UHGV virus genome: UHGV-0268713
Source: a virus
DNA length: 34,690 nt
Reading direction: 5' to 3' (one strand)
Shown here: piece after piece, positions 136-34,604 of the stretch
Numbering within the stretch: position 1 is the first letter of the stretch
How the letters are laid out: each line of letters begins with the position of its first letter
Notes under the pieces: model-generated
Told to the model about the DNA's origin: nothing
Database searches by the model: none
Seen by the model: the letters and a program-made list of their open reading frames with translations, nothing else
Program-made: the position numbers and the translations under genes

Positions 136-150
136 TTACCTTAAAGGTAT
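136..150. promoter_or_regulatory. Imperfect operator-like site upstream of integrase
   Basis: TTACCTTAAAGGTAT matches the TTACC-N5-GGTAA motif at 14 of 15 positions; lies 43 bp upstream of the int start. Confidence 0.3.
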
Positions 151-192
151 ACTCTCATACCGTCATGAAAATGGTTTCTATACGGGTGAATT

Positions 193-1443
193 GTGCTTAC
201 CGATACAAAATTAAAAAACCTCAAGCCGCAGGACAAACTGTACAAGGTCTCCGATCGTGACGGGCTGTATGTAGCTGTGCTTACGTCAGGCACGGTCTCG
301 TTTCGCTATGACTACCGTATCAACGGTCGCCGCGAAACACTGGTAATCGGGCAGTATGGGCGTGACGGTATCAGCCTGGCAGAAGCGCGAGAAGAACTGA
401 TTGCTGCAAAGAAGCTGCTTAAAGCAGGCCAGTCGCCGGCTGCGGCTAAACGTGACGGTATCAAAAAGATTCGTGGTGCCGAGACGTTTGCGGTACATAC
501 CGACAGTTATATGAAACACGTCATCCTGGCTGACAGTACCCGCGCAATGAAGCAGGCGGTGATCGACCGTGACATACTTCCGGTTCTTGGCAACAAAATG
601 ATGGCTGAAATTACCACATCGATGGTTCGTGATTTGTGTGACCGGATTGTCGAACGCGGTGGTCGGGCAACAGCAGTACAGGCCAGGGAAATCATCAGCA
701 GCGTATACCGTCACGCCAATGACCGTGGTCATGGTTTGTTTAATCCTGCGGCTGACATTAAACCTTCGTCTATCGCCATATTTAAACCACGAGAGCGAAC
801 ACTGACACCAGAAGAAATTGGCCTGTTCTTCCGCACGCTGGATGCCATTGGTGCTATGGGCACTATGAAAATGGCTTTAAAGCTGGTGCTTATCACTATG
901 GTTCGTAAAGGCGAATTCACCAATGCAACGTGGGATGAAATAGATTTTAAAAAATGGACATGGACAATTCCTTCAGACCGCATGAAGGGAAGCCGGGCGC
1001 ACGTTATTTACCTGCCTAAACAGGCACAGGATATATTGGTTGGGTTGCAGATGTGCGCTGGTGGAAGTGAATATCTGGTTCCTGGTCGTTACAATTTCCG
1101 GAAGCCATTATCTAATGCCGCGCTGAACTCTCTGATCGACAGAACGGTGAAAATAATAAATGAAGATGGTGAGCATATTCAGGGCTTCACCGTACACGAT
1201 ATGCGCCGTACAGCCAGTACGTTGTTGCATGAGGCTGGTTATCCTTCAGACTGGATTGAAAAGGCTCTGGCACATGAGCAGAAAGGTGTGCGCGCCGTAT
1301 ATAACAAAGCGGAATACGCCAGACAGCGCGCCTACATGTTGCAGCAGTGGGCCGATATGATTGATTCCTGGATTAACGGGGAGCATACGGATCTGATTCC
1401 GTTCTCCCCGTCGAAGTTTGAGAAGTGGATGGCGGGGGAATAA
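193..1443 (+). CDS. int: Tyrosine site-specific integrase, P4-like with N-terminal arm-binding domain
   Basis: 416-aa ORF with GTG start. N-terminus MLTDTKLKNLKPQDKLYKVSDRDGLYV is typical of P4-type integrase arm-binding domains; C-terminal HDMRRT...Y region fits the tyrosine recombinase catalytic domain. Confidence 0.9.
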   Translation: MLTDTKLKNLKPQDKLYKVSDRDGLYVAVLTSGTVSFRYDYRINGRRETLVIGQYGRDGISLAEAREELIAAKKLLKAGQSPAAAKRDGIKKIRGAETFAVHTDSYMKHVILADSTRAMKQAVIDRDILPVLGNKMMAEITTSMVRDLCDRIVERGGRATAVQAREIISSVYRHANDRGHGLFNPAADIKPSSIAIFKPRERTLTPEEIGLFFRTLDAIGAMGTMKMALKLVLITMVRKGEFTNATWDEIDFKKWTWTIPSDRMKGSRAHVIYLPKQAQDILVGLQMCAGGSEYLVPGRYNFRKPLSNAALNSLIDRTVKIINEDGEHIQGFTVHDMRRTASTLLHEAGYPSDWIEKALAHEQKGVRAVYNKAEYARQRAYMLQQWADMIDSWINGEHTDLIPFSPSKFEKWMAGE

Positions 1444-1451
1444 TTTTGCCC

Positions 1452-1490
1452 GGCACATCCCTGTGCCGCCGCCCGTCAGAAGAACCCAGC
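1452..1490. repeat. 39-bp exact direct repeat, copy 1 (identical to 34652-34690)
   Basis: GGCACATCCCTGTGCCGCCGCCCGTCAGAAGAACCCAGC is identical at both positions, with a mismatch immediately to the left (1451 C versus 34651 A). It contains the hairpin GGCACA-TCCC-TGTGCC and overlaps the 3' end of the antirepressor gene at 1476-2132. Confidence 0.9.
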
Positions 1491-2132
1491 CTTGTCGTTG
1501 ATGTACTCCGCGTGGGTCTGGATATCACGCAGGCATTTGCTCACACCAACGATGTAACAGAACATGGTGGTCAGCTCCGCCGCCGCGCCCGATACATCGT
1601 GCCCGTCTTCCTGTAACTGGTTCAGCAGATTCATCAGCAGTGAGTTCTCCGTCAGGCCGAGAACACCAGACGGAGAATGAATCAGACTGCGGTAGCCGGG
1701 CTTCAGTGGGGCGCTGTATTCTTTTTTGTCTTCCAGCTTGATCGCCTCCATAATGGCGGGCATGAAGCCTGACAAGACCTTCTCCACTTTTGTTTCTTGT
1801 TGTCTTAAACGTTTCTCGCATTCAATGAAGTAGCGTCGTACCTGACGACCTTTTTCGTTACGCTCGACCATTGCTAGTTCTTTGGCTGTATCGAGGGTGA
1901 GGTGGTACTCTTTGCGGTTGTGGCCGCCTCTACCAGATGTTTGCTTTCCCAAATTGGAAAGCAAAATATAGTCTTGATTTTCAATGAATTCGTATTCTGA
2001 AATGCGATTTGTAATCCATGCTGCAAACACCTTTTTAACACCTAAAAAAGCGTGCAGATCGCGGGCATTGCAAAGTAGGGCTGTTTCGTTAGATATAGTG
2101 CCGTTGAATACGGGGATGAGTTGACTGGTCAT
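1476..2132 (-). CDS. Antirepressor paralog 1 (Rha-like N-terminal domain plus KilAC-type C-terminal domain)
   Basis: ORF track 1476-2162; start moved to the ATG at 2132, which has an AAGGAGG Shine-Dalgarno 5 nt upstream. The C-terminal ~75 aa ([37 protein letters not shown]...KAGFF) are identical in protein to the C-terminus of the ORF at 32558-33502, at roughly 95% DNA identity. Confidence 0.8.
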
Positions 2133-2161
2133 GATGACCTCCTTTGAAGTTTTAGTTAGCA

Positions 2162-2184
2162 ATCACCAGTTAGTAGCTGGTGAT
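2162..2184. promoter_or_regulatory. Perfect 8-bp inverted repeat upstream of antirepressor 1
   Basis: ATCACCAG-TTAGTAG-CTGGTGAT, 30-52 nt upstream of the ATG at 2132; candidate operator for antirepressor control. Confidence 0.35.
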
Positions 2185-2456
2185 CGGGTGTCAACTAGAG
2201 CCTTCAAAGACGCTCCGGGCATATTCCCCTTTTGGGTATTGTATTACGCCTCTCCACCCGACCTTTGTACGGATGTGACTATGCCAAATTGCAGGCATAA
2301 AAAAGCCGCAAAGCTATCGGGTGCGGGTGACCGCTTTGAAGTTCTAGTACGGTCAGTATGCGATAGCTCTGGCGGCATTGTCAAATCATGCGCCACTGAG
2401 TCCAGCAATCTCTGCAATACCAATAGCGAGATAATCGCGATTCGTCAGGCGTGATT

Positions 2457-33540: not shown

Positions 33541-33552
33541 GTGACATGTCAC
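33541..33552. promoter_or_regulatory. 12-bp perfect palindrome GTGACATGTCAC, copy 3
   Basis: Exact 12-mer, immediately 5' of a terminator hairpin. Confidence 0.4.
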
Positions 33553-33578
33553 AGGCCGCTTTCGCGGCCTTGTTTTTA
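33553..33578 (+). terminator. Rho-independent terminator after antirepressor 2
   Basis: AGGCCGC-TTTC-GCGGCCT followed by TGTTTTT. Confidence 0.6.
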
Positions 33579-33737
33579 ACGAATGCCACCGCCGCCAGGG
33601 CGGGAATCCGCAGAACGCCCACCGCAGCGGGAGCCGTCAGCGGCAGTATCGCTGTCGTGCTGACAACGACCGGCAAAGGCCTGAGTTGAAGCTACCAGAG
33701 ACAACAAAACGAACAGTGCAGCAAATGCTTTTTTCAT
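33576..33737 (-). CDS. Candidate small secreted peptide (53 aa with signal peptide)
   Basis: MKKAFAALFVLLSLVASTQAFA looks like a Sec signal peptide with an AxA cleavage site; the predicted mature 31-aa peptide is Gly/Arg-rich with two Cys. Upstream promoter-like TTGACG, 16-17 nt, TATAGA; no clear Shine-Dalgarno. Confidence 0.3.
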   Translation of the reverse strand: MKKAFAALFVLLSLVASTQAFAGRCQHDSDTAADGSRCGGRSADSRPGGGGIR

Positions 33738-33807
33738 TGTGAAATTTCCATCTATAAGCCACCTCAATGTGGCGTCAATGAGTGTAGCACTGACTTTTGT
33801 TTCGTCC

Positions 33808-33830
33808 ACAAAAAAGCCCGCGCTGCGGGC
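33808..33830 (-). terminator. Rho-independent terminator for the accessory operon
   Basis: GCCCGC-GCT-GCGGGC hairpin (33816-33830) followed on the minus strand by TTTTTTGT. Confidence 0.55.
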
Positions 33831-34375
33831 TATTCCTTCCATTTATCAGAAAAAAGATCTTCTTCTAAAGGCATTGGTTCTGTTTTTGTTTTCTCAAAGA
33901 ATTGATAACTGATAGTGATTGCTGCCTCTTTAAACTCTTCTTGCTCAGTTATGTTGTGAGCATCTGCGTCAACAAAAAACATAACCAGCGCATCACGATT
34001 GTGATTTACCGAATAAACTAAAAAGCAATCACTTGTTGGTATGCATTTTACTTGTACAGACGCTATATTTTTCCATGCATCCCAAGATGATTTTTTACCA
34101 GTGTGTTTTTTATCACTATCTTCTGGAATATAGTCTTGGTTATCGACATGAGTATGCCTGACATTTAGTTTAAGCATTTCTGTCGGACGAGCAAATGCAG
34201 CATCTTTACCAAGAGATGGATGGTATCCCGTTTTCCAATACTGGGTAAAGGCATCAGATACTTTCTTCAGCTCAAGATCAGATGCACAAAGGGCCGAGAA
34301 ATTTTGCGTATGCAATACTCGACCCTTATATCTGACAATTTGATTTTTATCATTCTGCGACGCAGACGAACTCAT
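33830..34375 (-). CDS. Hypothetical protein (181 aa), AT-rich accessory gene
   Basis: ATG at 34375 with an AAGGA Shine-Dalgarno; low GC; no confidently recognised domain. Weak resemblance of HTH and LVY...H segments to YafO-type toxins is unverified recall. Confidence 0.55.
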   Translation of the reverse strand: MSSSASQNDKNQIVRYKGRVLHTQNFSALCASDLELKKVSDAFTQYWKTGYHPSLGKDAAFARPTEMLKLNVRHTHVDNQDYIPEDSDKKHTGKKSSWDAWKNIASVQVKCIPTSDCFLVYSVNHNRDALVMFFVDADAHNITEQEEFKEAAITISYQFFEKTKTEPMPLEEDLFSDKWKE

Positions 34376-34529
34376 AATTTTCCTTATTGTTACGAGAATC
34401 AAAGAAAGCGCGGGATACGCGACTTGCGTGATCTTTTGTCATAGTAACTTTTACGTACTCTACGCTTCCATTGAAAGAACGTCTTGCGGCAGCTTGCGCT
34501 CTACGCATCTGCAATTTTTCGTTTCGCAT
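34350..34529 (-). CDS. Small basic protein (59 aa) overlapping the start of the downstream gene
   Basis: Hand translation MRNEKLQMRRAQAAARRSFNGSVEYVKVTMTKDHASRVSRAFFDSRNNKENYEFVCVAE; GAGGT Shine-Dalgarno 6 nt upstream; overlaps the 181-aa gene by 26 nt in a different frame. Confidence 0.35.
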   Translation of the reverse strand: MRNEKLQMRRAQAAARRSFNGSVEYVKVTMTKDHASRVSRAFFDSRNNKENYEFVCVAE

Positions 34530-34560
34530 GACATTACCTCATATCTCATAAGTTCATTAC

Positions 34561-34604
34561 ACGGATTAATAAAAATGAAACCAATCCGTTTACCCTTGAG
34601 GTAA
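34561..34604. promoter_or_regulatory. Promoter region of the accessory operon with a perfect operator motif
   Basis: TTACCCTTGAGGTAA (34590-34604) plus inverted repeat ACGGATT-N15-AATCCGT (34561-34589), 25-70 bp upstream of the ATG at 34529. Confidence 0.45.

Follow-up and report, generated by a model that had tools for sequence, protein, structure and literature searches.

What reads the palindrome TTACC-N5-GGTAA, and what role does it play at so many separate places along one viral genome, UHGV-0268713? The window, as the whole stretch of 34,690 nucleotides analyzed is called here, is an E. coli prophage of the epsilon15/phiV10 group (genus Uetakevirus, podovirus), and the palindrome is very probably bound as an operator by Rep, the repressor that the prophage itself encodes, and stands at the heads of most transcription units. 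The basis for this is the statistics of the motif, its positions, its conservation, the homology of Rep, and the absence of a peptidase domain from that protein. By family, the arrangement is the repressor–operator–antirepressor (Rep–operator–Ant) immunity system of epsilon15 and SPC32H, which is already known, having been annotated in epsilon15 and studied biochemically in SPC32H. The original prediction for this stretch had the reading largely right, but the known Rep–Ant system and its antirepressor switch went unrecognized in it.

The palindrome and its reader

Perfect copies of TTACC-N5-GGTAA are found at eight positions (6222, 6284, 6996, 9283, 9345, 12925, 16048, and 34590), exactly where they had been predicted, against 0.01 expected from dinucleotide-preserving shuffles; eight copies were reached by 0 of 100 shuffles. 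Four copies with one mismatch (136, 7044, 7381, and 12943) bring the total with at most one mismatch to 12, with 0.47 expected. These four were among five imperfect copies proposed earlier; the fifth, at 7013 (GCACCTCATAGGTAA), departs from the palindrome in two bases and falls short of significance by itself, its class counting 22 members against approximately 9 expected, but its orthologs in epsilon15, SPC32H, Klebsiella phages, and Citrobacter prophages are perfect sites. When all perfect palindromes of the form 5-N(0-12)-5 in the window were counted without bias, TTACC-N5 came top with its eight copies, every other palindrome having four or fewer. Chance as the source of the repeated palindrome is ruled out by the shuffle counts together with this ranking. 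The two-mismatch versions, commoner here than in the shuffles, lie mostly within genes and may be either weak sites or a compositional effect.

Taken over 103 distinct perfect sites from 16 genomes, the consensus widens to A-TTACC-nnWnn-GGTAA-T, with A or T at the center in 96%. Between adjacent sites in the 16 genomes, a spacing of 62 bp occurs 26 times, one of 61 or 63 bp three times, one of 17–18 bp 17 times, and one of 48 bp seven times. In vB_EcoP_ZX5 (ZX5), a genome with 8.6% non-coding DNA, 14 of 14 sites having no more than one mismatch fall between genes (binomial P ~1e-15), as do 14 of 15 in epsilon15; the 13 sites of the window, 7013 included, are spread over eight separate intergenic regions.

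The motif brackets the rep gene, with two sites in an array resembling the left operator (OL) of lambda and three in one resembling its right operator (OR), and further copies precede the gp40/replication unit, the DUF1064 unit, terS, gp3 and the portal gene, a toxin-like accessory operon, and int. The pair and the triplet flanking the repressor gene, and the sites ahead of the replication region, terS, the portal region, and the accessory operon, had all been proposed, and the position scan and alignments bear them out.

A search of Rep against the PDB with phmmer returned 5D50 (SPC32H Rep; E 4e-42, residues 1–190) and 5D4Z (residues 89–190). Rep shares 100% identity with phiV10 p40 and ZX5 ORF21 and 42% with the epsilon15 gp38 repressor. 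The SPC32H Rep (PDB 5D50, 5D4Z) is likewise a full-length homolog with 42% identity (tblastn), sharing the three-part build, the lack of a peptidase, the recognition helix, and the aromatic interface. The claim that the repressor lacks a peptidase domain holds, as Pfam and NCBIfam gave no match to an S24/LexA-type peptidase (autocleavage) domain and found helix-turn-helix (HTH) families only, those of Pfam being HTH_3 and a YdaS-like HTH. A five-clade alignment of Rep has 69 invariant columns, NLVNRW and F184 among them, and the aromatic residues of the tetramer interface are retained, with Y181 and F184 of the window aligning with F187 and F190 of SPC32H.

Tetramerization, binding to palindromes, and inactivation by Ant are taken from the literature. 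According to one study, SPC32H Rep binds palindromic DNA as a tetramer, each of its DNA-reading pairs being made of N-terminal domains from different dimers, and Ant, itself a tetramer, disassembles the Rep tetramer (PMC9638917). Another gives SPC32H Rep an N-terminal DNA-binding, a middle dimerization, and a C-terminal tetramerization domain as in loop-forming repressors, with the two middle-domain pairs approximately 100 A apart and the DNA-binding pairs on opposite sides, and describes the mechanism of repression by Rep as little characterized so far (PMC9986798). When ZX5 ORF21 was overexpressed, free phage disappeared and the mRNAs for holin and endolysin fell by more than 99.9% (PMC9782041).

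The motif might instead be read mainly by another protein, such as the Cro-position protein (7095–7325), the gp49-like regulator (12311–12652), or a host factor. Lambdoid Cro uses the operators of the repressor, so the 76-residue protein may bind the same sites, and the motif also marks late and lysis promoters, where an activator is expected too. Nevertheless, the rep gene is bracketed by the motif in OL and OR arrays in 16 of 16 genomes, the authors of epsilon15 credited the sites to the repressor, the literature has Rep binding palindromic sites (PMC9638917), and the recognition helix of Rep is as invariant as the half-site; sharing by Cro would supplement repression by Rep and not displace it. 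A reader other than Rep is accordingly quite improbable.

Conservation points to Rep as well. The identity of Rep homologs is 98–100% in E. coli, 75–78% in Enterobacter, 45% in Klebsiella, and 42% in Salmonella phages, and 16 Rep-carrying genomes of nine enterobacterial genera, with Rep identity down to 42%, have the same motif at the same syntenic positions, namely, OL, OR, post-cro, post-replication region, terS, gp3/portal, accessory module, and int. Loss of the motif in relatives with the same repressor, an outcome named earlier as one that would tell against the reading, was not seen; it was kept in every Rep-carrying relative examined. The SPC32H genome has the motif at the same positions. 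The epsilon15 record (AY150271.2/NC_004775.2) holds seven features labeled "protein_bind: repressor, lysogeny" with the motif, orthologous to window sites 12925, 16048, 6222/6284, and 9283, but none of its features covers the OR sites, the second site in either pair (terS and RuvC), or the sites at lysis and int. Scanning that genome gave 15 sites, including the unannotated OR triplet, second members of pairs, lysis-cassette site, and int site. Similarly, phiV10 and ZX5 have 14 sites each, unannotated in both records, and the ZX5 paper contains no operator analysis (PMC9782041). Of the features of a Uetakevirus Rep–operator–Ant system, the window shows a full-length Rep, no autocleavage domain, sites at the positions annotated in epsilon15, and the synteny and identity of the genus.

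The recognition helix reads N-L-[VI]-[NS]-R-W in 85 of 86 database homologs, with NLVNRW invariant over four phage clades; the variants NLVSRW, NLISRW, and NLINRW exist. Prophages of Superficieibacter, Erwinia, Klebsiella, Citrobacter, and Scandinavium were added to the sample, and those of E. coli and Serratia were picked for variant recognition helices. The prophages with variant helices still use TTACC-N5-GGTAA, and TTACC is the top 5-N5-5 palindrome in each of the three. As a negative control, the motif is absent from five loci with a distant match in the N-terminal part only and a different helix; homologs of the N-terminal domain alone in Paraburkholderia, Hydrogenovibrio, and Thiomicrospira lack it and yielded no clear alternative operator.

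Operators and promoters

A strict sigma-70 scan was run around each site, and the remaining promoters were read from alignments or sequence (Table 1). At four promoters, those of the leftward early unit (PL), the DUF1064 unit, terS, and the toxin module, the last base of a predicted -10 element is also the first base of an operator, and at five promoters a site overlaps the -10/+1 region or the spacer. At PL, the hexamer AATCAT ends on the first base, on the minus strand, of the OL-proximal operator. In the same way, the -10 of the DUF1064 promoter shares its final base with the initial T of the proximal operator, and the TTGATT of this promoter stands 19 nt past the distal one. The TG and TACTAT of the terS promoter, the latter reaching the initial T of 12925–12939, are conserved in phages of E. 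coli and Salmonella alike. When OL is aligned between the E. coli and Salmonella clades, conservation is confined to the two operators and the -35 block CTATTGAC, and this block is kept at PL in 10 genomes amid diverging flanks. The site at 7381, with orthologs in phiV10, ZX5, Tyrion, BUCT711, and the related genome L009, lies 17 nt upstream of a conserved, -35-like TTGATC, which is a distal position without a proximal partner.

Table 1. Operators, promoters, and regulatory genes of the window, with reference features in relatives.
Feature	Position	Strand	Description
Imperfect int site	136..150		TTACCTTAAAGGTAT; one mismatch (GGTAT); 43 bp upstream of int (193–1443)
OL-proximal operator	6222..6236		Covers approximately -7 to +8 of PL
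Predicted PL	6236..6264	-	TTGACA (6264–6259), 17-nt spacer, AATCAT (6241–6236); scan 10/12
OL-distal operator	6284..6298		62 bp from proximal, 19 nt upstream of PL -35
Rep, 194 aa	6356..6940	-	N-terminal HTH DNA-binding domain, middle HTH-like dimerization domain, C-terminal tetramerization/Ant-binding tail
OR site 1	6996..7010		Perfect; closest to rep start
OR site 2	7013..7027		GCACC...GGTAA, two mismatches; degenerate in E. coli clade
OR site 3	7044..7058		TTACC...GGTGA; in PR spacer/-35
Predicted rightward promoter (PR)	7041–7069		TTGTTA-17-TATTAT (scan); conserved TTGATT at 7033–7038
Cro-position gene, 76 aa	7095..7325	+	First gene of rightward operon; weak PHROG match to phrog_35 transcriptional repressor; epsilon15 gp39 homolog
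Terminator after Cro-position gene	7347–7366		
Lone imperfect site	7381..7395		GTACC...GGTAA; right after cro terminator, ahead of gp40 and replication genes
DUF1064-unit distal operator	9283..9297		After conserved terminator-like stem with T run
Putative DUF1064-unit promoter	9317..9345	+	TTGATT (9317–9322), 17-nt spacer, TTTAAT (9340–9345); 11-genome alignment; missed by strict scan
DUF1064-unit proximal operator	9345..9359		62 bp from distal; overlaps Shine-Dalgarno; ATG at 9363
gp49-like regulator, 113 aa	12311–12652	+	phrog_536 "transcriptional regulator"; Cys-rich C-terminus (CGKCG...CPC...C); possible ribbon-helix-helix-like N-terminus
Putative extended -10 of terS	12917..12925	+	TGgTACTAT; directly after terminator 12888–12905
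terS operator 1	12925..12939		Orthologous epsilon15 site 12–27 annotated "protein_bind repressor"
terS operator 2	12943..12957		Imperfect GGTTA; 18 bp from operator 1; overlaps terS Shine-Dalgarno and start (ATG 12957/12960)
gp3 lone operator	16048..16062		Heads leader of ~100 nt before gp3 (16153–16359) and portal/structural genes; epsilon15 2931–2947 annotated "protein_bind repressor"
Toxin-module operator	34590..34604		At leftward promoter for open reading frame (ORF) 34350–34529 and YafO-like gene 33830–34402
Putative toxin-module promoter	34604..34632	-	TTGCAG (34632–34627), 17 nt, TACTAT (34609–34604) ending on first operator base; sequence reading
CATAT(G/A)TGGTT, window	9329–9339, 16104–16114		
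CATAT(G/A)TGGTT, epsilon15	2988, 19940, 24751, 33752, 35953		
CATAT(G/A)TGGTT, ZX5	2467, 5897, 16155, 22812		
Annotated repressor sites, epsilon15			Before terS; before gp3; gp19–tail fiber gap; three at OL (downstream of repressor gene); before RuvC gene

This overlap of -10 elements and operators would fit direct occlusion with looping by the tetramer. In the mechanism proposed here, whose promoter positions, loops, and repressed units are inferred, the Rep tetramer would offer two N-terminal HTH pairs, each reading one palindrome, and operators would head most transcription units, usually right after the terminator of the preceding one. At PL and the DUF1064 unit, the proximal operator would lie over approximately -7 to +8 and the distal operator exactly 62 bp, or approximately six helical turns, upstream. 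Because such a pair is six turns apart and each tetramer has two DNA-reading units, one tetramer could clamp both sites and so shut the promoter inside a small loop. The two terS sites, 18 bp apart, would cover the start site and the ribosome-binding site, and the three OR sites would overlap both PR and the rep promoter that diverges from it. The early-left, early-right, replication, and packaging genes and the accessory toxin module would thus be kept off together in the lysogen. A -10 ending on the operator and a second operator 62 bp upstream provide a concrete looping model for repression by Rep.

Induction would proceed not by RecA cleavage but via one or more small LexA-controlled antirepressors, encoded just outside the window. 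Kim and Ryu reportedly found in 2013 that Rep stays uncleaved in the SOS response and that ant is under LexA repression. A LexA-controlled antirepressor in a system of the SPC32H type explains why Rep has no peptidase domain. In L008, a 99.3% identical E. coli prophage, the gp19-type ant gene (85 aa, 13676–13933) has a LexA box, CTGTATGAATATACAG, upstream at 13955; in systems of this type the gene is divergent from the tail-fiber gene, a position that falls beyond the right end of the window. Within the window, LexA boxes show no enrichment, and no antirepressor gene lies close to the sole perfect CTGT-N8-ACAG (15518). Besides the gp19-type Ant, antirepressor-like genes include a Bro/Ant-family ORF that adjoins int (1476–2162, minus strand, phrog_377), a P22-type Ant (32558–33502, plus strand), and a Bro-N gene at the right edge (34676–34690) that is cut by the end of the window. 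The presence of several such genes suggests multiple induction inputs or cross-talk with other prophages.

The operator-bearing promoter regions coincide with boundaries of mosaic modules, and homology breakpoints against Tyrion, epsilon15, and phiV10 often lie within approximately 20 bp of an operator (6976, 7418, 9366, 12885, and 16036–16037). Since homology blocks often start or stop so close to a site, the repeats could be conserved sequences at module boundaries, with recombination in mosaic exchange as their main role and no part in regulation. That account is very improbable: a stretch of 15 bp whose center varies offers homologous recombination little to work with, breakpoints would in any case be expected where transcription units end, and the palindromic symmetry, the fixed 62-bp pairing, and the -10 overlap would be left unexplained.

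Late genes and a second motif

The original prediction had the repressor directly silencing all transcription units. As judged from the sequence, the operator overlap at five promoters would agree with this, but the claim is not supported at gp3 (and the tail-fiber and lysis genes in relatives), where the site is 60–80 bp off, and at arc/ant/sar, which has no site. Several results weigh against Rep as the repressor of most units by way of this operator. The strict scan found clear promoters at PL and PR only, the others being based on alignments. At gp3, as at the tail-fiber and lysis genes of relatives, the only full operator is approximately 60–80 bp upstream of any plausible -10/core promoter, so that occlusion is not evident there. 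The drop in lysis mRNA in ZX5 could be an indirect effect. Across the Rep homologs sampled, those with variant helices included, no altered operator specificity was found against which co-variation of site and repressor could be judged. Finally, the mismatch GGTAT of the int site is identical in every genome (phiV10, epsilon15, SPC32H, Tyrion, and BUCT711), and the epsilon15 record labels that position Int-binding and RNase III, not repressor. A possible site at int had been suggested, and it is indeed present and conserved, lying within a larger conserved inverted repeat (GACGGTAT...ATACCGTC; window 120–175), but with its constant mismatch and this label its role as an operator is uncertain.

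Nearly every base of the gp3 leader (16048–16152) is conserved among the phages of E. coli, Salmonella, Enterobacter, and Klebsiella, which is not true to the same degree of the coding DNA beside it; the scan found no sigma-70 promoter in this region, and the leader has no Rfam family match. It contains a GGTAAT half-site 72 bp after the operator start, which corresponds to the right-half position of the proximal site in 62-bp pairs. A second motif, CATAT(G/A)TGGTT (CATATGTGGTT), occurs in the gp3, tail-fiber, lysis, gp40, and DUF1064/RuvC promoter regions, 44–56 bp downstream of the distal Rep operator, with six copies in epsilon15 against 1.1 expected and five in ZX5 against 1.5. Its role may be that of an element of late promoters or of a site for an activator. 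Promoters of the gp3, tail-fiber, and lysis type, which carry this motif, may need an activator, for which the regulator at 12311–12652 is a candidate. Its gene is the last conserved early gene before terS, with only a 77-aa ORF (12649–12882) in between, and the protein has no PDB, Pfam, or NCBIfam match.

These late regions give room to another account, in which Rep binds the dispersed sites but, outside OL and OR, does not occlude promoters; the sites would act as elongation roadblocks similar to the stoperators of mycobacteriophage L5 or as anchors for long-range bridges, and the late genes would be off mainly for want of an early-encoded activator. Several sites stand right after terminators and over ribosome-binding sites (9345 and 12943), where read-through from PR would arrive; the gp3, tail-fiber, and lysis regions have an upstream operator only, no recognizable -35, and the CATAT(G/A)TGGTT motif in common; and shortly before terS lies the gene for the Cys-rich 113-aa regulator (phrog_536). 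Against this, palindromic sites cannot depend on orientation as stoperators do, and four promoters show the classic geometry of occlusion, in which a -10-like hexamer, 17 nt past a -35, shares its final base with the beginning of the operator. Roadblocks or anchors in place of occlusion are therefore considered unlikely, and operators of Rep at the promoters are retained as the preferred reading.

Known systems, gene context, and significance

The scattered operators had been likened to the logic of P1 C1 or N15, which is a fair analogy of layout but not of family, given the symmetric operators and the unrelated protein. The C1 repressor of P1 has operators scattered at many operons and is inactivated by an antirepressor (Coi), not by RecA-mediated cleavage; these operators are 17 bp long and asymmetric, the protein that binds them is unrelated to Rep, and the late genes of P1 need a C1-controlled activator, Lpa. 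P1 thus resembles the window in dispersing the operators of one repressor over separate operons, but the operator of the window is a symmetric 5-N5-5 palindrome and its repressor has an XRE-type HTH, with no C1-like family detected by Pfam. The stoperators of L5, bound by gp71, are many sites in short intergenic gaps and also inside operons, providing global prophage silencing; they are asymmetric, lie in one orientation only, and block elongation, whereas the sites of the window are palindromic, have no orientation, and in several cases overlap core promoters. Lambda shares multi-site operators on both sides of the repressor gene, divergent PR and repressor promoters at OR, and oligomers that could bridge sites, but it has no late, packaging, or lysis operators, uses the N and Q antiterminators, and depends on RecA-assisted CI cleavage; the putative loop is 62 bp in the window and 2.3 kb in lambda.

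SPC32H, among the closest known systems, differs from the window in that the host of the latter is E. coli, its five central operator bases are more G+C-rich, and it carries the extra antirepressor-like genes (1476–2162, 32558–33502, and the Bro-N gene at the right edge); OL has two sites in the window and three in the Salmonella clade, and OR site 2 is degenerate in the window. The Rco repressor of pLS20 has the TetDloop C-terminal tetramerization domain, as does SPC32H Rep, and bridges operators 75 bp apart until relieved by an anti-repressor (PMC9986798). The conserved 62-bp pairs would fit the same bridging logic, although Rco reads arrays of direct repeats and acts at one promoter pair only.

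The window extends from just inside attL to the accessory region ahead of the tail fiber. The attP core reported for ZX5 is absent from it, which places its beginning just inside attL, and in L008 the DNA beyond its right end holds the Bro-N gene, the small ant, the tail fiber, an acyltransferase, lysis genes, and attR. Its first 25 kb are 97–98% identical over 81–88% to HEMP4, TL-2011b, ZX5, and phiV10, and its structural genes are 78% identical to those of epsilon15. As predicted, no N or Q antiterminator was recognized, there being no match to either family among the approximately 25 early ORFs scanned with Pfam, PHROG, and NCBIfam, where small unannotated proteins remain.

An immI-like module of the P22 type occupies 31766–33502, comprising an Arc-domain protein (31766–32227, minus strand), a small ORF, a sar antisense RNA (32489–32556, minus strand; Rfam, 45 bits), and the P22_AR_N antirepressor (32558–33502, plus strand), and no Rep operator stands anywhere in it. 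A YafO-family toxin-like gene (33830–34402, minus strand) is preceded by a 59-aa ORF (34350–34529, minus strand), and the two look like a toxin–antitoxin module, with a perfect Rep operator at what would be its promoter. In addition, Rfam matches were found for a tRNA gene between terL and gp3, on the opposite strand (15652–15725, minus strand; 73 bits), and for the sRNA-Xcc1 family in the early-left region (2174–2263, minus strand; 63 bits).

The overlap of -10 and operator, the conserved 62-bp pairing, and the invariance of specificity across the genus were not found stated in the accessible literature and may already stand in the primary epsilon15 and SPC32H papers. For annotation, the finding means that E. 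coli prophages of the phiV10/ZX5 type bear the operator set of epsilon15, unannotated in their records, and that these sites can serve as markers for the heads of transcription units. It is possible, although put forward tentatively, that a single repressor acting at nine or more loci has its specificity frozen, with the half-site, the recognition helix, and the 62-bp clamp constant down to 42% Rep identity, the 62-bp pairs being obligatory micro-loops of one tetramer and the phages mutually homoimmune at the repressor level. If so, it would fall to O-antigen modification and antirepressor specificity to discriminate against superinfecting phages. Invariance of the operator over genera predicts cross-immunity among phages of different hosts. 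Derivatives of phiV10 are engineered reporter phages for E. coli O157, for which it is practical knowledge which promoters a resident repressor would shut.

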